64,000 nucleotides of DNA, taken from the NCBI GenBank assembly GCA_013298545.1, contig JAAFIA010000014.1, forward strand, positions 32 through 64,031, given 5' to 3'. Source of the DNA: Bacteroidota bacterium (GTDB taxonomy: Bacteria; Bacteroidota; Bacteroidia; Palsa-965). The translations under genes were made by a program, and so were the position numbers. Position 1 is the first letter of the stretch, and every line of letters starts with the position of its first letter. This document shows, piece by piece, positions 19,624-59,428 of the stretch. The notes beneath the pieces are model-generated. The model did not search any database. It was not told the DNA's origin and saw only the letters and a program-made list of their open reading frames with translations.

Positions 19624-21369
19624 TTAAAAAGATACGGTGTATTTCCAGAATTTGAATGTGCGGAGGTTTTCTTCTTTGGTTAAACTTACTTTCCCGCCCG
19701 TGGCTTGTCCTACACGGTTTACAGCACTGCTAGCGAGGTCAAATCCGGTTACCTTTTTGTTTTCGTCGGCATTCATGGCCATCACCTCTTGAGCTGTTTC
19801 GTCGTCATCGTTTGTTGGGTTTTTGCTTTTCGATGATCCGTCAAGTGTCTTTTTCAAGCGACGCGCAACATATTGTGCCGGTGAAATGTAATTGGGTTGA
19901 TAAGCTAAATTGGTATTAGGGTCGTAAGGTTCTATGACGCCTTCACGAATTTGATTGAGGCCAGTTGGGTTATTGAATAAAGCCTGAACATTTTTCTCGG
20001 GCATGTTGTATGCGACAAAACGACTTGGGTTGTTATTTTCAGGTGCAACGATGGGTTGCAGTTGGTTGTTTGGATTGTAAATGCGTTTTGATTTGTCTGA
20101 CTGATCGGGCGCGTTAATCGTATTGTTGGCGATTTGTGCTGGAGTTTGTGGAGCTTGATTAGGTACGATTTGCGGAATGGTTTTCGACTTTGTTTTGAGG
20201 CTGTCGTTGGTGGCAACTTGATCGGTACCCGAATTGGTTTGTTGCGAATTGAAGAAGAAAATTCCAACCAACAGCAAAACTGCCGCCGCCGCTGACCAAC
20301 GCGTAACCGTCCACCACGCAATGCCCGCGCGCCCGTCGTGATAAAGCGCCGCTTTGTCAGGAAATACAATGCTGGTATCTGGTTGCAAACGTGTTTGTGC
20401 AAGCAGCGTCATTTCGTGTTGCATCTCAGGATGCGAACTGAGGTATGCGTCGAATACGTTTTGTTCAATGGCATTGAGTTCGCCATCGAAAGCAGCTACG
20501 GCATATTCGTCGAAATTCGATGCCGTAATAAGCGTTGTTTGTTTTAACGAAGCTTTATCGGCAAAAGCAATGGCTTCGGGCTGAAGAATGGTTTGACGGA
20601 AAGATTCAACAATGGCTTGCTTTTCGGGATTGTTGTTTAAGAATTGTGTAAACGCTGTAAGTTCATCGGCGTTTAATTCCTGATCGAGAAAAGCAACAGC
20701 ATATTCTTCAAAATTCGATTCCTGAATAGTCGTGGTAACCGTTTTCTTTAACGCATTTTTATGGGGGAAAACAAGATCGCTTTCGGGAACAAAACGTGTT
20801 TGTTCAAACAGTGAAAATTCGGCTTGTTGTTCGGGATGTGTTGCAAGAAACTGTTGAAAGATCGCTTGCTCTTCGCTTGTCAATTCACCTTCAATAGCTT
20901 GTACAGCAATCGTGTCGAAATTTTCAACGGTAAGCACAAAAGGAGATGATTTTTTCAAGGCATCTTTTCCTTCAAATACAATTTCAGCATCGGCTTCTAA
21001 GCGCGTTTGCTGAATGAGGTGAAAGGTGCTACGGTGTTGCGGATTGGCTTGAAGAAAAGCTTCTAATTCCTTTTTCTGATTTTCATGCAACAAACCTTCG
21101 AGCGAAGCAATACAAAACCATTCGATGTTGTTTTCAGAAACAGGCTCCGTTGTTTCGAGCGATTTTTTAAGCGAATTTTTATTTGGGAAAACGATTTCTT
21201 CCGCGTTGAATTCTTCGTTAAATGATGCATCCACAAAACTGTCGAACAATTCGCGGAGATCAGCGTTGTTTTCCAGAAACTGGAAAAGTGCCGAAGTCTG
21301 CTCCATGTTCAAGCGCCCCTCGTAAAAATCGAGGAAAAATGCTTCACAGTTTTGACGGTTAATATTCAT
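19624..21369 (-). CDS. Membrane anti-sigma-factor-like protein with five tandem about 60-aa cytoplasmic repeats, one TM helix and N/P/Q-rich periplasmic tail
   Basis: Immediately downstream (6 nt) of the ECF sigma gene. Repeats each ending (V/I)FPxKxALKK(S/T). TM helix WWTVTRWSAAAAVLLLVGIFFF. Confidence 0.55.
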   Translation of the reverse strand: MNINRQNCEAFFLDFYEGRLNMEQTSALFQFLENNADLRELFDSFVDASFNEEFNAEEIVFPNKNSLKKSLETTEPVSENNIEWFCIASLEGLLHENQKKELEAFLQANPQHRSTFHLIQQTRLEADAEIVFEGKDALKKSSPFVLTVENFDTIAVQAIEGELTSEEQAIFQQFLATHPEQQAEFSLFEQTRFVPESDLVFPHKNALKKTVTTTIQESNFEEYAVAFLDQELNADELTAFTQFLNNNPEKQAIVESFRQTILQPEAIAFADKASLKQTTLITASNFDEYAVAAFDGELNAIEQNVFDAYLSSHPEMQHEMTLLAQTRLQPDTSIVFPDKAALYHDGRAGIAWWTVTRWSAAAAVLLLVGIFFFNSQQTNSGTDQVATNDSLKTKSKTIPQIVPNQAPQTPAQIANNTINAPDQSDKSKRIYNPNNQLQPIVAPENNNPSRFVAYNMPEKNVQALFNNPTGLNQIREGVIEPYDPNTNLAYQPNYISPAQYVARRLKKTLDGSSKSKNPTNDDDETAQEVMAMNADENKKVTGFDLASSAVNRVGQATGGKVSLTKEENLRTFKFWKYTVSF

Positions 21370-21374
21370 GTTGG

Positions 21375-21860
21375 TTATACTACTTTTTCAATGCTACCAA
21401 TGTAATTTTTCAGAAACGTTCGTGCTCTGAAAATATAAACTTTCACTTGTGCTTCGCTAAGTCCGGTTATTTCGCCAATTTCTTCATACGAATAGCCTTC
21501 ATAGTCGCGAAGTAAAACCACCGAGCGTTGAATCTCGGGCAGTTTACCCAATGCTTCCTGCAAAATTTCTTTCAGATCGCTATACTGCTTCGTATGCGAG
21601 AGCGCAATCATAGGCGCTTCATCCATCGAACCTTGACGTTGATCTTTGCGCAAGGCATCGATCATGGTTCGATAGGCCGTCGTAAACATATACGACTTGG
21701 CGTTTTTGGCTTCTGTATCCGATACTTTGAGCCACAGTTTCTCAAAAGTATCCTGTACAATGTCCTTCGCTTTGTCCTTATCCTTTACATTCTTCAGAAT
21801 AAAGCGGTACAGGTTGTCGGCGTACAAGTCCACACAGCGATTGAACTCTTCTGCAGTCAT
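21375..21860 (-). CDS. ECF-subfamily RNA polymerase sigma-70 factor
   Basis: 161 aa; region 2 (DIVQDTFEKLW) and region 4 HTH (SYEEIGEITGLSEAQVKVYIFRAR). Confidence 0.85.
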   Translation of the reverse strand: MTAEEFNRCVDLYADNLYRFILKNVKDKDKAKDIVQDTFEKLWLKVSDTEAKNAKSYMFTTAYRTMIDALRKDQRQGSMDEAPMIALSHTKQYSDLKEILQEALGKLPEIQRSVVLLRDYEGYSYEEIGEITGLSEAQVKVYIFRARTFLKNYIGSIEKVV

Positions 21861-21968
21861 GGTTTTTAGGTGCTTCCGGGAATAAGACGGTTAAACCCAA
21901 GCCGAAGTTACAGGAGTTTTTGAATATCTCGCAATCAATTGGTTGTTAGGCCATTAAAAAAATAAACA

Positions 21969-22415
21969 TTAAACTTGCTTCATTAATTGCGAATAGGCCT
22001 CTTCAGGAGTTTGCAAATCGCTTAACACATTATTAAGTGTTGGGTTGGTTAGGGTAAAACACCATACATTGGATAGGATCAGATTATCCAAGATTTTGTC
22101 GGTAAGTGCTATATCTTGAAAAAAGAAACTCGTTTTAAAACGTAAATCGCCATCGGTATAATCAAACTCGAAATTACCCACATTTAAGCCATAATTTATT
22201 CGAGTAATTAATTCCGCAATCTGGGATCTTTTATCAACTCTAATCTTAGGTTGAAATATCGAATAGACTGAAATACGTTCTTCACGTAGAATAAAATCTA
22301 CGATGAGATTAAATTTTATTCCTTCATGATTTATTGGAATCAAAAAAGCCCCCTCCGAGATAGAGTCAAATTGCCATCCCTTATGATTAAAATATCGAAT
22401 CAAGGACTCGCGCAT
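21969..22415 (-). CDS. Hypothetical protein, possibly YbjN-like fold
   Basis: 148-aa ORF with ATG start, 8 nt after the upstream ORF's stop; lies in an AT-rich (about 33% GC) islet. The family call rests on weak pattern similarity only. Confidence 0.45.
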   Translation of the reverse strand: MRESLIRYFNHKGWQFDSISEGAFLIPINHEGIKFNLIVDFILREERISVYSIFQPKIRVDKRSQIAELITRINYGLNVGNFEFDYTDGDLRFKTSFFFQDIALTDKILDNLILSNVWCFTLTNPTLNNVLSDLQTPEEAYSQLMKQV

Positions 22416-22423
22416 GTGTAGGA

Positions 22424-22999
22424 TTATTTATGAATTGATAAACCCTTTCCGATAAAATCCGAAAAGTCAAATACGGTATGATCATTTGAGTATGGTAATG
22501 GGTAGGGTATGTATTTTTTGGCGATGGAGAAATAGTTTGAAAGTTTCTGATAGGGGCTAAGAATTTCTATGTCAGCCGAAGGGAAATTAGTTTTTAAGAA
22601 AGCATGAATTTTCTCGATCTGAGGCGAAAATGTTACATCAAAGAAAGTGTCCGCTGTTGGATAATGATCAGAGGTGAGCTTTTCTATTGGAATGATTGGT
22701 GTGTGCTCTAAGTAGAATCCTCTTTTTATTTCAGTAACCATGTATTCTTGATAAGGGTTATCAAGAATAAGTTTTTTTAGCGAAATCTTTCGGTCTATAA
22801 AAGCGCGAAGTTTTGACGGAGGTACCTGAAAAATCAACCAAGTATTACTCTCATTTGAATAATCTACCCAATAGAATAAATATAGATTATTGTTGCGTAC
22901 ATCAAAGAACATAGAAAGCTCTGGCCCATCGTGGTTAATGAGATCGCCGACTCGGATTAAGTTTGCGCCAAGCGTATTTGCTTTATCATGCAACATCAT
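22424..22999 (-). CDS. Hypothetical protein (AT-rich islet, middle gene)
   Basis: About 191-aa ORF; ATG at 22999 overlaps the 3' end of the upstream ORF by 14 nt; no recognisable motif. Confidence 0.45.
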   Translation of the reverse strand: MMLHDKANTLGANLIRVGDLINHDGPELSMFFDVRNNNLYLFYWVDYSNESNTWLIFQVPPSKLRAFIDRKISLKKLILDNPYQEYMVTEIKRGFYLEHTPIIPIEKLTSDHYPTADTFFDVTFSPQIEKIHAFLKTNFPSADIEILSPYQKLSNYFSIAKKYIPYPLPYSNDHTVFDFSDFIGKGLSIHK

Positions 23000-23435
23000 C
23001 AAATATATTTATTCTTTTTATAATTCGTTTACTCAAATCTGCGTTTTCATATTCATGAAAATCAAAATGGCTCGTCTCTTCATTAAAATCTCCTGCCAAA
23101 CCATCTGTTTCATGCAATTGCAAATGAGCGATGTAATCTCCTTTATCTCTTCGAAATTTAACTTGAAGTTTAGGTGGCTTATTTGCTAAAACGGCCTTGT
23201 AACGAGCTTTTGCTTCTGTCTCATTTTTATATAAAGATAACCCGTAGCCGGAACACATTTTGTCTGATTCATCGAGTACTTTGGCTGGTGGATATTGGAT
23301 TAACCATAAGGGTTTGAAATCATTTTCATGTGCTTGAGCATGCACCCATCGAAATGCCAACATCGAAACACCAGAAAAATTTGCAGCAGGACAGTGATCA
23401 AATTGCCTCAAAAAATCTTTATACTTAAGCTCCAT
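22986..23435 (-). CDS. Hypothetical protein (AT-rich islet, first gene)
   Basis: About 149-aa ORF from ATG 23435 (MELKYKDF...); no recognisable motif. Confidence 0.4.
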   Translation of the reverse strand: MELKYKDFLRQFDHCPAANFSGVSMLAFRWVHAQAHENDFKPLWLIQYPPAKVLDESDKMCSGYGLSLYKNETEAKARYKAVLANKPPKLQVKFRRDKGDYIAHLQLHETDGLAGDFNEETSHFDFHEYENADLSKRIIKRINIFDDVA

Positions 23436-23583
23436 ACAAAAAAACAACAATTAAAAATTAAACCTTCCATCATCTATTCCCTGCAAAAGTATAACATTCG
23501 AATACGCCATGTCAAGTCCCTAGCCTCCAAAGCGATCTAACTCGTTGACTATCTGCACAATATTTTTCTAGGCAGATTCTCCC

Positions 23584-24546
23584 TTAAACATCGCCATCCC
23601 GTTTCATCGGCCCTTTGCCCCAATCTGCCAATTCTTCTGCCGACCACAATTCTGGAAAAAACACATTCAACTGTAACGATGGTGGCAAATATTGTTTCCA
23701 ATTTGTTCCGCCAGTAGCGGCAATATCTTCCGGTTTCTTTTCTAAATAATGCGAGGCCGACCAAACGTGTTGTAGTTTCCAATTGACGTTCACATTTGCA
23801 TCGAGCCAGCGCAGGGCTTTTTTAAGCTCTTCTGTTTTTTCAACTTCCGGCAAATTGCGCCAAAGAGCAGCAAGATTTGTATCTCTATTTTCTTGACCCA
23901 ATGCTAAAAATGTAGCCCCATACTTTTCTTCAAATTGTTGAAGGGTGAGCGTCTTTTTACCTGAACCATCTTCGGTAGCACCCGAACGCCAATAAATATG
24001 ATCAAACAAATCGGTGAGGGACGATTGCGAAGAAACTTTATCGCGCGATTTTGCGGCTACCAAATTGATGAAATCCGTTGAACGAATTTCAATCATGCGG
24101 TATTGGCCCGATTGGAATCCGCTTGCAGGAGTTAGTGAAAGTCGGTACTTCAAAAATTGTTCGCGTTCCATGCCATCGCGCATAATCCGAAACGATGTAA
24201 TGAGCGCATCGAAATAATTCGCAATACGCAATACGCGTGTACGGAAAAACTCACCTGTCAATGTTCCTGATTTTCCCCGCTCCGCCAATTGATCATATTC
24301 CAACTGACACAGTTTAAAATACAATTCTGTAATCTGATGGTACATGATGAAAATCTTCTCATCCGGAAAAGCCGTGCGTGGTTTTTGCAACGTGAGCAAC
24401 GTATCGAGTTGAATATAATCCCAGTAATTCAGATAATCAGCATAAATCATGCTGTCTAAATAGACACCTAAATCTTGTTGCTTGTCGTTGAGTTTGGTTT
24501 GAAGCTGTTGGAGCTTATCAAGAATTTCTGGAGAAAAATCGGCCAT
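23584..24546 (-). CDS. kynA: Tryptophan 2,3-dioxygenase
   Basis: TDO signature YIQLDTLLTLQKP...DEKIFIMYHQITELYFKL; ATG at 24546 (the track TTG start is at 24573). Confidence 0.75.
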   Translation of the reverse strand: MADFSPEILDKLQQLQTKLNDKQQDLGVYLDSMIYADYLNYWDYIQLDTLLTLQKPRTAFPDEKIFIMYHQITELYFKLCQLEYDQLAERGKSGTLTGEFFRTRVLRIANYFDALITSFRIMRDGMEREQFLKYRLSLTPASGFQSGQYRMIEIRSTDFINLVAAKSRDKVSSQSSLTDLFDHIYWRSGATEDGSGKKTLTLQQFEEKYGATFLALGQENRDTNLAALWRNLPEVEKTEELKKALRWLDANVNVNWKLQHVWSASHYLEKKPEDIAATGGTNWKQYLPPSLQLNVFFPELWSAEELADWGKGPMKRDGDV

Positions 24547-24698
24547 TGTTTTTGCGTTGAATTTGGGCTGCAAGTTAGGTAAAGGATAGCAAAATCGTGT
24601 GCAAGAAAAAGGATGATTGTCGTCAGGTTTTCTGAAAAGAAAAATCCGGCCTTCGCAGGTGTTTGCAAAGGCCGGATTTGTAAGTAAATTTTATACAA

Positions 24699-32616: not shown

Positions 32617-33468
32617 TTACTCTTCATCGCTAAACATAGCAGCAATTAAGGCGATTAAAGCCAATCCAACTAATACGTTTGCTGTATTTGTATTTTTGTT
32701 AAAAACAGGTGTTGTGTTTATTGGAAGAGAAGTGTTATTGTATATGATTGTTGGTTCATGTATGGTAGAGTCTTCGTCAGAATTGAATGTTGGCGAAATT
32801 TGAATACCGGAAAGTTTGTGGCTCAATTCCTCGATTTTGTTTACGAGATTATTTCTGTTAAAGTAGTACGGTAGAATTTTTTCATGAAAATGTGTCGGAA
32901 TCCGTATCTCACTTTCTTCTGATTGAACGAGAATAACTTTGCAGTTTACGTCAGTGGCTTTATAAATATATTTTTCCAATTCGGTAAAATCTTTCCCATA
33001 CACATTCATAATTAAAACTATCGTTTCTCGCTGAATGGAAGTATTGGGCAAAATCTTTTCAATCATCAATCCTTTTTCTGAAGCAAGTTTTTCAAAATGC
33101 TGCAACAAGTCTTGTCCTTTTTTGCCTGAATGAACAGCAACATAAATTTTTTTTGATCGAATTTCTTCGAAAAAACGAGCACGTAAATCAATGTATTCTT
33201 TAACCGAATTTCGGATCACATCAGCAACTGAAGAGGATGCTTTTATCACTTTAACGCGTTGTTTAAACAAAACATCACCAAAAAGATCGATCACATAAAA
33301 AAACGCTCCATTAATGAATGAAGGAGCGAGATACTCAACTCGATCAAATGAAACCTCAATGTTTTGAAACGGATTTCTTCGAATCGAATTGGCAATTTCT
33401 TTGCCCACAATCAATCCGCCCGAACTAGTCAGGTGATCAGATGTGAGTTTTGAAACGGCTATTTCCAT
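32617..33468 (-). CDS. DUF4325-like (STAS-like) domain protein with C-terminal transmembrane anchor
   Basis: 283 aa; ATG overlaps the upstream stop (TAATG); N-terminal about 100 aa resemble a STAS-like DUF4325; C-terminal VLVGLALIALIAAMF is hydrophobic; AT-rich (about 33% GC). Confidence 0.45.
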   Translation of the reverse strand: MEIAVSKLTSDHLTSSGGLIVGKEIANSIRRNPFQNIEVSFDRVEYLAPSFINGAFFYVIDLFGDVLFKQRVKVIKASSSVADVIRNSVKEYIDLRARFFEEIRSKKIYVAVHSGKKGQDLLQHFEKLASEKGLMIEKILPNTSIQRETIVLIMNVYGKDFTELEKYIYKATDVNCKVILVQSEESEIRIPTHFHEKILPYYFNRNNLVNKIEELSHKLSGIQISPTFNSDEDSTIHEPTIIYNNTSLPINTTPVFNKNTNTANVLVGLALIALIAAMFSDEE

Positions 33469-34334
33469 TAAAATTCGATTGTTTCGTCGAAACTTTCCTT
33501 TTCGAGTTCCTCAAAGTTACGAAAATCGAGCGATGCGCGTATGAGTGTTCCCGGATGGTCGTACTCAAGTAGTTGATGATCTTCCATGTTGAATGTATAG
33601 CCCGTTTTTGGGTTTACAAACAAACAACCCCGACCAGAACGTATTTCTAATTCTCTTTTTACGGTTTCAATCAAGGAAATGAGGTTGTTTAAACCTCGTC
33701 CATAATTCTGTGCGGTTGTTTTTGTTGTAATGAAATTTTCTGTCGCGTACCAGATTGCCTCCGAATCACTTCGCCGTTGCATTTCAATTCCGAAATGGCT
33801 TTTTATCCGGTGAGCAATTCCGGTACCTAAATCAGAAACAACGATTTCTATTTTATTCGAGACAATTGGGGCAATGTGAATAAAACCAAAGCGATAATCC
33901 GAATGCTGACATATGTTCATGTACAACTCTGCAAATACAGCAATAGCTTGTGTTAAATCTTTTTGTTTTAAAGTAGGATTAGTCTTGAAAAAGTCAAGCA
34001 GTTGATTCCGCCGATTCAGTAACTTCTCCTCATTATCAACACTTGTAAGAAATAGACCAAAGCTGCCAGCATGAATTTCGATACTTTGGTACGGATGATC
34101 TGCAATTTTCTTGAAATACGCTAATGCATTATTTGACGATTCGACATGCGAGATAGCAACGCGATTGTTTTGTTGTTCTAAAATTATACTGAGAAGAAAA
34201 CAGGTAGCAGAGTTATCAATTTCTTCAACAGATGCCCAATCAAATTTAATCGTAACAGGCTTTCTCTGTTGTAATGCTAATCGTATATCTACAAGTTCTT
34301 GTAGCGAAATTTTTGTGTTGAAACTAAAAACCAT
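33468..34334 (-). CDS. STAS-like N-terminal domain fused to GHKL/RsbW-SpoIIAB-like serine kinase ATPase domain
   Basis: N-box-like ELYMNICQHS and G1-box VVSDLGTGIAHRI; G2-like NYGRGLNN; N-terminal anti-sigma-antagonist-like segment. ATG at 34334 sits 2 nt after the ispF stop; the track TTG start is at 34358. AT-rich. Confidence 0.5.
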   Translation of the reverse strand: MVFSFNTKISLQELVDIRLALQQRKPVTIKFDWASVEEIDNSATCFLLSIILEQQNNRVAISHVESSNNALAYFKKIADHPYQSIEIHAGSFGLFLTSVDNEEKLLNRRNQLLDFFKTNPTLKQKDLTQAIAVFAELYMNICQHSDYRFGFIHIAPIVSNKIEIVVSDLGTGIAHRIKSHFGIEMQRRSDSEAIWYATENFITTKTTAQNYGRGLNNLISLIETVKRELEIRSGRGCLFVNPKTGYTFNMEDHQLLEYDHPGTLIRASLDFRNFEELEKESFDETIEF

Positions 34335-34336
34335 TG

Positions 34337-34816
34337 CTACTTTTTTTGAATCAAACAAACCGCATACGCATTGGCACCGTTTTCGCTGCCCACATACCCC
34401 AGTTTTTCATTGGTGGTTGCTTTGATCGAAACGCAATCTTCGGCCACGCCGAGAATTGGCGCAAGCACACGCACCATTTCGGGAATGTGTGGATTTATTT
34501 TTGGTTGTTCGAGGCAAAGTGTCGCATCTACATTGCCCACGCGCCAGCCACGCTCCAAAAGCAAACGCACCACTTCGCGCAACAAATCTTTGCTATCGGC
34601 ACCTTTCCAACGCGCATCGGTATTCGGAAAGTGAAAACCAATATCGCGTAGTGCAGCCGCACCCAACAACGCATCGCAAATCGCATGCAACAACACATCC
34701 GCATCCGAATGCCCATCGCAACCCTTTTCATGTGGAATTAAAACACCACCCAGCCAAAGCGGACGACCCACCACCAATTGATGTACATCGAATCCAAATC
34801 CTACGCGTATATCCAT
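34337..34816 (-). CDS. ispF: 2-C-methyl-D-erythritol 2,4-cyclodiphosphate synthase
   Basis: GFGFDVHQL ... GHSDADVLLHAICDALLGA signature. Confidence 0.85.
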   Translation of the reverse strand: MDIRVGFGFDVHQLVVGRPLWLGGVLIPHEKGCDGHSDADVLLHAICDALLGAAALRDIGFHFPNTDARWKGADSKDLLREVVRLLLERGWRVGNVDATLCLEQPKINPHIPEMVRVLAPILGVAEDCVSIKATTNEKLGYVGSENGANAYAVCLIQKK

Positions 34817-58381: not shown

Positions 58382-58456
58382 GGGAGCATAGCTCAGCTGG
58401 TTCAGAGCATCTGCCTTACAAGCAGAGGGTCACAGGTTCGAATCCTGTTGCTCCCA
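58382..58456 (+). tRNA. tRNA-Val (anticodon TAC)
   Basis: 75-nt cloverleaf: acceptor GGGAGCA/TGCTCCC, D-arm GCTC...GAGC, anticodon arm TCTGC-CTTACAA-GCAGA, T-arm ACAGG-TTCGAAT-CCTGT, discriminator A; followed by a hairpin terminator (cccgaa gcaa ttcggg T9). Confidence 0.9.
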
Positions 58457-58494
58457 CAAAAAATCCCGAAGCAATTCGGGATTTTTTTTTTGAG

Positions 58495-58656
58495 ATGCAT
58501 TACGTTTACATATTATACAGCAAGCGTATCGACAAATACTATGTCGGCGAAACTATTTCTGTGGAAGAACGTTTGCACCAACACAATTCGGGATATTTTG
58601 TGGGAGATGAGTTATGTTTATATTTGATTAGAAAGCGTTGTATAAGTATTGTATGA
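58495..58656 (+). pseudogene. Truncated GIY-YIG nuclease-family (YhbQ/UPF0213-like) gene remnant
   Basis: MHYVYILYSKRIDKYYVGETISVEERLHQHNSG matches the GIY-YIG N-terminal half; the ORF ends about 20 aa later without the conserved C-terminal half; immediately 3' of tRNA-Val. Confidence 0.5.
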
Positions 58657-58675
58657 CCTAGAAGTAGATGCAAAA

Positions 58676-59080
58676 ATGAAAACAGCGACAATAGAAGTTT
58701 ACGACAAAAGAGAAAAGATAACAACCACTATGCAGGTTGAACAAATCGCTAATAACGTTTTTAGAATGTTAGACAATGATGTTTTTAATTGTAGATTGAC
58801 TCTTGGAACTGAATTTGAAACTCGACTCAACCAAGACGGTAAACATGAGATTGTAAGAATTGTTAAAGAATCTTTTTATATAACAAGACGTTTTTTTCTA
58901 TCCGTACAATTCAAAGAATCCGAATACAGAATTTTAGGTGATGAAATAGAAAAGCAAGGCGGGTTTTGGCAGGTCGATTTCGGTAGTATTGCAACAATCA
59001 ATCTGCCGAAAGATTGCAAAATAAACATTGACGAGGTTTTTAAGGTTTTTGACTTTAAGCCCACAGAAATAAAAGACTAA
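58676..59080 (+). CDS. Hypothetical protein (AT-rich cassette, gene 1)
   Basis: ORF of 134-143 aa (ATG 58649 or 58676); about 35% GC; stop TAA directly abuts the next ATG. Confidence 0.4.
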   Translation: MKTATIEVYDKREKITTTMQVEQIANNVFRMLDNDVFNCRLTLGTEFETRLNQDGKHEIVRIVKESFYITRRFFLSVQFKESEYRILGDEIEKQGGFWQVDFGSIATINLPKDCKINIDEVFKVFDFKPTEIKD

Positions 59081-59428
59081 ATGTTAGGTCAAGCCTTTTG
59101 TGAATTTTTAGAATACGAAATCTCCAAAATGTTTGAGCATTCTGTCAATGATCAAACTAAAGGGTTTTGGTGTGATGGGGTTTTACTAAGCCAGCCCGAA
59201 AGCAACTATTCTCAAAAGTTCGTAAATGACAATAGACACGTTAAATTAAAAGCTTTCATAGGCAAAGATGGACAAACCGAATATGAACTGATATTAAAAT
59301 TCGGACCTCAAGCCCTAAGTCGGTATGCAAGAAATTTAGACATATATGCATGTGTGCCAAGCCCAGACAGACTAAATTGCTTCTATATAGACACTAAACG
59401 AAATAGAATTGAACTACAACTTGATTGA
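59081..59428 (+). CDS. Hypothetical protein (AT-rich cassette, gene 2)
   Basis: 115-aa ORF starting immediately after the upstream stop; no family recognised. Confidence 0.4.
   Translation: MLGQAFCEFLEYEISKMFEHSVNDQTKGFWCDGVLLSQPESNYSQKFVNDNRHVKLKAFIGKDGQTEYELILKFGPQALSRYARNLDIYACVPSPDRLNCFYIDTKRNRIELQLD

Follow-up and report, generated by a model that had tools for sequence, protein, structure and literature searches.

What kind of element is the small AT-rich islet that lies between kynA and an extracytoplasmic function (ECF) sigma factor gene in the genome of a Bacteroidota bacterium of the Palsa-965 lineage (assembly GCA_013298545.1)? The DNA analysed, called the window here, is the 64,000-nucleotide stretch from positions 32 to 64,031 of contig JAAFIA010000014.1; the islet consists of three small minus-strand open reading frames (ORFs), named A, B, and C in reading order. 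The original prediction, made from the sequence alone, took them for an acquired toxin/immunity, orphan-immunity, or small defence cassette. Of these options, the evidence supports the defence one: A and the N-terminal domain of B (BN) are homologous to the two proteins of PD-T4-10, an Escherichia coli defence system for which we know of no mechanism, and the unit is mobile. The islet is probably a three-gene operon of the PD-T4-10 toxin-antitoxin (TA) and abortive-infection (Abi) family, autonomous and horizontally mobile, whose architecture has not been described for the family. We are fairly confident that the triad is of the PD-T4-10 kind; we are much less confident of the roles proposed below for the B tail and for C.

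Protein A is a full-length homologue of PD-T4-10A: its residues 6-142 match positions 10-140 of the 148-position PADLOC profile PD-T4-10_A (PDLC04023) with an E-value of 3.9e-20 and a score of 70.1 bits. Protein B matches the companion profile PD-T4-10_B (PDLC04024; E = 7.6e-17) only over positions 16-123 of 353, i.e., the first third, and ends at 192 aa, whereas the full-length PD-T4-10B members P0114, P0138, P0143, and P0156 match positions 1-345. Window B thus shares the ~135-aa N-terminal (DUF6575-like) domain of PD-T4-10B, but it is ~190 rather than ~350 aa long, and the C-terminal domain of the E. coli toxin is replaced by a short variable tail. The match of window B to DUF6575 itself (PF20215) is weak and sub-threshold, at 20.4 bits against a Pfam gathering threshold of 26.6; 74 of 148 sampled B-family members matched DUF6575 at E ≤1e-3. 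The gene order, A then B, and the overlap of the two ORFs are also those of PD-T4-10, and in both cases the proteins are small, cytoplasmic, and without a recognisable catalytic domain. No transmembrane (TM) segment or signal peptide was found in A, B, or C (maximum 19-residue hydropathy ≤1.08), and NCBIfam gave no family for any of the three.

PD-T4-10, described by Vassallo et al. 2022, came out of a functional selection on the E. coli pangenome and consists of two overlapping ORFs without predicted function; B is toxic, A neutralises B and cannot be deleted, and the pair protects against T-even phages through abortive infection (PMC9519451). The triad differs in having a conserved YbjN-like third gene where PD-T4-10 has a two-gene composition, and its hosts are mainly Bacteroidota. 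In the passages of the published description of PD-T4-10 drawn on here, there is no mention of modularity in B or of a partner from the YbjN family.

The layout was as first described, with tightly packed ORFs of 149, 191, and 148 aa (Table 1). The frame of A stays open beyond its ATG to a TTG at 23450, and B can be started to give 191 aa (ATG at 22999), 190 aa (ATG at 22996, the NCBI call), or 192 aa (TTG at 23002). A and B share 14 nt if B starts at the ATG at 22999, and 11-17 nt over the range of these start codons; C begins 8 nt past the B stop.

Table 1. Features of the islet, in positions of the window.
Feature	Position	Strand	Description
Gene A	22986..23435	-	149 aa from ATG; PD-T4-10A-like (antitoxin in E. 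coli)
Gene B	22424..22999	-	~191 aa; shortened PD-T4-10B-like protein, with conserved N-domain and short variable tail
B N-domain (BN)	22583..22969	-	residues ~12-140 of the 192-aa frame; confidently modelled
B C-terminal tail	22427..22582	-	residues 141-192; low model confidence, hypervariable in the family
Gene C	21969..22415	-	148 aa; acidic YbjN-family protein (pI 5.2)
Hyper-divergent block	21960..22800	-	B from ~residue 65 to the end of C; low identity to the syntenic relative L001
Promoter-like site	23488..23515	-	upstream of A; TTGACA-16 nt-TATACT with TG; consensus match only

An AlphaFold2 model of B, built from a 148-sequence alignment, gave a predicted local distance difference test (pLDDT) score above 90 for residues 12-140, which are modelled as a four-strand meander followed by two helices, two strands, and a helix. 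Twelve residues of BN are near-invariant (D20, G26, P27, L29, W45, D47, N53, R54, W55, P110, Y113, and P115). The tail was modelled at a pLDDT of only 41-65; among triads, tails are polar, 50-90 aa long, with a mean pairwise identity of 17% and an isoelectric point (pI) mostly of 9-11. A profile search of 1.84 billion representatives yielded 788 clusters, and only the first 125-140 residues were ever matched; the proteins containing BN are between ~120 and 470 aa long, the modal length being 200-240 aa. The original prediction had proposed Foldseek on predicted structures as a check, and it was run for B and A with no significant match: the best E-value for B against the Protein Data Bank (PDB) was 0.17, and the outcome for A is given below.

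The pattern in the last ORF that had been likened to YbjN proved real. Residues 3-112 of C match positions 3-109 of the 126-position Pfam YbjN profile (PF10722) at 24.4 bits, above the cut-off of 22, and the C relatives P0008 and P0009 carry PF10722 as well; PADLOC gave no match for window C. Few residues are invariant in the C family, namely N74, G80, and G89. The YbjN family has a fold like that of the class I chaperones of type III secretion systems (T3SS), which is a peptide-binding fold (PMC5398634, PMC3575483), and by analogy with the family literature C would adopt a T3SS-chaperone-like fold. C resembles the PF10722 proteins YbjN, AmyR, and DR1245 in scoring above the family cut-off, in being of similar size (~150 aa), and in being acidic. 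It differs in genetic setting: the E. coli genes YbjN and AmyR stand alone and are described as stress-associated (PMC5398634), whereas the sampled C subfamily is strictly operonic with A and B. Two other relationships were considered. A fusion of B and C as the source of the 353-aa E. coli toxin was rejected because the C-family hidden Markov model matches no long form of B and window C has no PADLOC hit. The idea that BN is itself a paralogue of C within the YbjN, or TY-chaperone (T3SS/YbjN superfamily), group was not supported; Foldseek matches to DR_1245, p32, and YPO0625 were non-significant, and hhalign gave a probability of 0.2%.

Word-indexed protein searches retrieved few close relatives, but homologous triads elsewhere, which the original prediction had suggested looking for, were found in ~30 loci and in unrelated contexts, both in genomes and in metagenome loci reached from C. 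A genome scan seeded with A gave 21 further loci, and the order A, B (200-250 aa), and C (150-159 aa) occurs in 16 genome loci, including the window, as judged by our own ORF calls and phmmer. The hosts (Sphingobacterium, Mucilaginibacter, Cytophagales, Chitinophagales, Saprospiraceae, Haliscomenobacter, Thiomargarita, Chlorobiota, and Limnohabitans) are mostly Bacteroidota. A metagenome scan seeded with C gave 16 loci, and those that could be assessed all had B upstream (15 of 15) and A as well (13 of 13). The genes of B and C overlap by 8-20 nt in most triads. When all neighbours in 43 loci were compared with one another, just three families recurred, B (42), A (37), and C (30), with C directly after B in 30 of the 43, including the window. 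There was no fourth conserved partner and no conserved flank among these loci; the triad therefore stands on its own as a unit, and that it lies between kynA and the sigma gene is incidental. Only L001, a Bacteroidia metagenome-assembled genome (MAG), carries the same triad at the same site, between the M4 peptidase and kynA genes and the sigma/anti-sigma pair and msrB. The other loci have different neighbours, and a functional link to kynA or to the ECF sigma operon was rejected. The alternative that the ORFs are spurious products of AT-rich DNA was likewise discarded, because the ratio of nonsynonymous to synonymous substitution (dN/dS) is 0.09 for A relative to its L001 orthologue and because all three proteins recur in dozens of genomes, being conserved in 30-42 of the loci. 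As a separate matter, the weak BN score of the B gene in one MAG (L007:1840-2445) is a record artefact: a masked run of N's, translated as X, extends over the N-domain.

Alleles were compared between the window and its syntenic relative L001. At the protein level, the flanking genes (M4 peptidase, kynA, msrB, and sigma) are 91-99% identical and the anti-sigma factor 77%; A is 81% and residues 22-66 of B are 78% identical, but the rest of B falls to 34-39% and C to 44%. Nucleotide identity is 40-60% within this divergent block, against 76-89% upstream and 92-97% downstream of it, and the edges are sharp, with an abrupt drop from ~80% near position 22800 and a recovery just past the C stop. Synonymous sites are saturated in the block (proportion of synonymous differences, pS, >0.75), whereas the corresponding values are 0.37-0.61 in A and the flanking genes. 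Together with the low dN/dS of A, the saturated synonymous sites mean that the block is an anciently diverged allele that arrived by recombination and not a product of local drift. The distal part of B and the whole of C have thus been exchanged jointly, as one cassette, relative to L001. Across triads, the distances of BN and C are also the best correlated (rho 0.79, compared with 0.67-0.70 for the other pairs). The joint swap, this correlation, the gene overlap seen in most triads, and the pairing of a basic tail with an acidic C all argue for a coupling of B to C.

The cassette is horizontally mobile, and A, B, and C are inherited and transferred as a unit. In a Thiomargarita MAG (L008) and a Chlorobiota MAG (L014), A, B, and C are each ~70% identical, which indicates a recent cross-phylum transfer of the whole unit. 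The islet is the lowest-GC 1.5-kb stretch of the window, ~3 standard deviations under the mean, with only 0.24% of such stretches as low; this part of the original description was correct, but the contrast of 33% against a background of ~50% was overstated, since the measured values are 35.2% (34-36% per ORF) and 43.2%, a difference of 8 points. The genes next to homologous loci are mixed; some are housekeeping genes, but defence genes are also present, including Nsn, AbiE, PD-Lambda-1, RT_UG29, PD-T4-2, HEC-03, and AriA. Mobility and an evolution of the conflict type are supported by the low GC content, the Thiomargarita/Chlorobiota likeness, the sharp recombination block, and these defence neighbours.

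Whatever follows BN, each BN gene examined has an A homologue immediately upstream. Because A and BN form a constant pair ahead of varied payloads, they constitute an invariant core, and the part that follows is interchangeable. Apart from the short tail with C, that part may be the canonical PD-T4-10B C-domain, in proteins of 330-360 aa (P0114, P0138, P0143, P0156; locus L027), a Drt8-type defence reverse transcriptase (RT; P0107 in L026), a DUF4332/helix-hairpin-helix region fused to BN (L022, 5356-6345), an unknown ~330-aa domain in a 471-aa B beside PDC-M65A/B (P0068 in L030, 4557-10008), or a separate SIR2-like gene after a short B (L020). There may also be no payload at all, with BN alone (L002, L021, and L024); such pairs exist without C, and C is therefore not essential to the core.

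Some of these loci merit description in their own right. In the metagenome locus L026 (ERZ23486227, 371-2906), a 147-aa A homologue overlaps the gene that fuses BN to the Drt8-type RT, and the RT is divided into ORFs of 385 and 313 aa, through either a frameshift or a genuine split; this architecture ties PD-T4-10 components to defence-associated RT (DRT) systems. In L020 (Bacteroidota MAG JBDLWG010000355.1, 4941-7273), a 424-aa SIR2-like protein occupies the usual slot of C and matches the PADLOC Aga_SIR2/pAgo-associated profiles with an E-value of 5e-17; the ORF call of A in this locus is broken (72 aa only), yet tblastn covers residues 2-146. The island around A and the 471-aa B in L030 also contains HigBA, HepT-MNT, and RadC fragments. 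Finally, a more distant C-like (YbjN-type) protein in L028 (Logan ERR14790933, 446-3406) comes after two proteins, 353 and 451 aa long, that are distinct from A and B and matched nothing in Pfam or PADLOC; this may be another chaperone-linked cassette.

How, then, might the triad work? If the triad behaves as its E. coli relative does, A would bind and neutralise B through BN. C would be a small, acidic, peptide-binding, chaperone-like protein that pairs specifically with the variable distal part or tail of B and controls the stability or activity of B, much as the SecB-like chaperone does in toxin-antitoxin-chaperone (TAC) defence systems. An infecting phage would then disturb the balance of A, B, and C, which would free a toxic, growth-arresting activity and abort the infection. 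Homology to PD-T4-10 suggests, in the same conditional sense, that the triad is active in defence.

CmdTAC and MqsRAC are established cases of TA defence that depends on a chaperone, and the TAC systems (CmdTAC/PD-T4-9, MqsRAC, and HigBA-SecB) resemble the triad in being three-gene TA-like operons in which a small protein of the chaperone type is encoded third. In each, one partner has an unstructured, variable C-terminal extension, and the cassettes seem to be selfish, mobile elements for which a role in defence is plausible. However, C matches YbjN, of the T3SS-chaperone fold family, and not SecB in Pfam, and no sequence relationship exists between the triad and the TAC toxins or antitoxins; the analogy would be one of function. 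TY-chaperones occur in predicted conflict systems too (Iyer et al. 2022, PMC9503650), where, as proposed here, a modular, rapidly evolving system includes a peptide-binding chaperone of the YbjN superfamily as an accessory. The core of those systems consists of ADP-ribosylglycohydrolases, phosphatases, and Nudix/WYL regulators, and the triad has none of these. A bolder version, which we think possible but doubtful, makes A and BN a universal phage-sensing or regulatory core with interchangeable outputs (the PD-T4-10B C-domain, Drt8 RT, DUF4332, and SIR2). The triad would then be a new class of chaperone-gated defence in which C holds the tail of B until a phage product titrates C or destroys it and thereby sets the system off, a TAC-like logic that would have evolved independently and without SecB.

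Several observations weigh against a PD-T4-10-type, chaperone-assisted Abi operon. The last two thirds of the E. coli toxin are missing from B, and the triad may therefore hold no toxin comparable to that of E. coli. In TAC systems it is the antitoxin that carries the extension, a chaperone-addiction tail, whereas here the toxin-like B does; A has no C-terminal extension, its 149 aa comparing with a 148-position profile. The tail of window B, at 52 aa and a pI of 7.3, is short and near neutral, unlike that of most triads, and the C-less pairs of A and BN belong on this side as well. A had no match in the viral_contigs, INPHARED phage, or PLSDB plasmid sets, and many of the loci, including that of the window, sit among housekeeping genes and not in defence islands.

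The main rival explanation also takes A and BN as a sensor or regulator core but makes C an interchangeable effector, i.e., an output in the payload slot that, once released, would act on a target in the host or the phage. The very different payloads found after BN, fused or separate, are the classic pattern of a core with swappable effectors, and C-like proteins also occur with other partners, as in L028. We nevertheless consider it unlikely, because the YbjN/T3SS-chaperone fold binds peptides and has no known catalytic or toxic activity (PMC5398634), the three invariant residues of C do not suggest an active site, and the co-divergence of C with distal B fits a binding partner better. The triad might instead be a selfish TA (addiction) or stress-regulatory module without a role in phage defence in this host. 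Only the two-gene E. coli relative has been tested, the locus lies between kynA and the ECF sigma operon, many homologous loci have housekeeping neighbours, and YbjN and AmyR of E. coli are stress-associated (PMC5398634). This seems to us quite unlikely, however, as the sole tested member of the family defends against T-even phages, BN is fused to the Drt8 defence RT and adjoins SIR2-like, PDC-M65, and other defence genes, and allelic cassette exchange with cross-phylum transfer fits conflict systems.

Two further explanations concern enzymatic activity of A and interbacterial competition. The invariant residues R29, S67, E128, C15, C61, and H123 of A suggest a functional site; P16, F40, P42, G65, L66, G99, G112, F124, and F126 are also invariant in the family, and H127 is near-invariant in the alignment. 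A might thus be an enzyme, possibly with an ADP-ribosyltransferase (ART)-like fold, that either modifies B to inactivity, in the manner of type VII TA systems, or is the true effector. Five of the top eight Foldseek hits are cholera toxin A1 or pertussis toxin S1, and R29 (in a predicted strand), S67 (in G-L-S before a helix), and E128 are in the order of the R-S-E triad; the conserved cysteines and histidines would suit an enzyme as well. But the model of A, from a four-sequence alignment, is poor (pLDDT 61), every Foldseek E-value with it exceeded 1 at a probability of 0.11 or less, no ART or other family was found for any of 22 members even at E ≤10, and there is no ExE/QxE motif, the residues being F126-H127-E128. 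Pfam and NCBIfam hold no family for A, a profile search of the PDB with A gave nothing relevant, and a homology comparison of A with C was negative. An ART-like A is accordingly a weak lead, and improbable. A polymorphic-toxin or orphan-immunity cassette for interbacterial competition, the remaining part of the original prediction, is disfavoured to the point of being very improbable. The joint swap of distal B and the small gene downstream is superficially like the displacement of a C-terminal toxin with its immunity gene. Against this, A, B, and C have no signal peptide, TM segment, or secretion or trafficking domain in Pfam (Rhs, PAAR, or the C-terminal domain of type IX secretion), A and BN have their homologues in a TA/Abi system that is cytoplasmic, and C is never arrayed. 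The original prediction had seen no large toxin gene next to the islet; neither such a gene nor a secretion gene is linked in any of the 43 loci, which have no recurrent neighbour beyond A, B, and C.

The locus shows that the toxin of the PD-T4-10 family is modular, a conserved N-domain of the A-binding type being joined to swappable payloads, and that the family reaches well past the enterobacteria. In the sampled loci, mostly from Bacteroidota, its commonest form has three genes, one of them for a YbjN-type chaperone-like protein. The proposed reading would also assign a cellular role to an operonic subfamily within the YbjN family, which is poorly understood. In practice, annotation models built on two-gene PD-T4-10 may miss or mislabel the triads. 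We judge the locus to be of moderate interest to specialists in phage defence, and of greater interest should the chaperone gating prove true.

The flanking genes had been named correctly, as judged by the Pfam annotation of orthologues that are 94-99% identical. The ORF on the kynA side (23584..24573) is 94% identical to a protein with the Pfam domain Trp_dioxygenase (tryptophan 2,3-dioxygenase), and that on the other side (21375..21860) is 99% identical to an ECF sigma factor and belongs to an ECF sigma/anti-sigma pair. The promoter-like site upstream of A scores 11 of 12 consensus matches, the best within the 3.4 kb scanned, and includes TACTTTTG, which fits the Bacteroidota -7 consensus TAnnTTTG. 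The anti-sigma-like protein (19624-21369, minus strand), 77% identical to its L001 orthologue compared with 99% for the sigma factor, contains several internal repeats of ~65 aa with a recurring '...FLxxNPxxxxxF...QTRLxP...VFPxKxALKK' pattern.

Two other low-GC patches were seen in the window. The second lowest-GC islet (~36%; 32617-34358, minus strand) lies between a response-regulator/PglZ-like gene and ispF and consists of two ORFs with a 1-nt overlap, one of 283 aa with a DUF4325 STAS-like domain and one of 296 aa with a weak HATPase_c-like match; neither had a PADLOC hit. The third patch (also ~36%; 58382-59428, plus strand) is directly downstream of the only tRNA gene of the window (tRNA-Val, 58382-58457); it holds two contiguous small ORFs (143 and 115 aa), neither of them matched in Pfam or PADLOC, and may be a tRNA-adjacent insertion.

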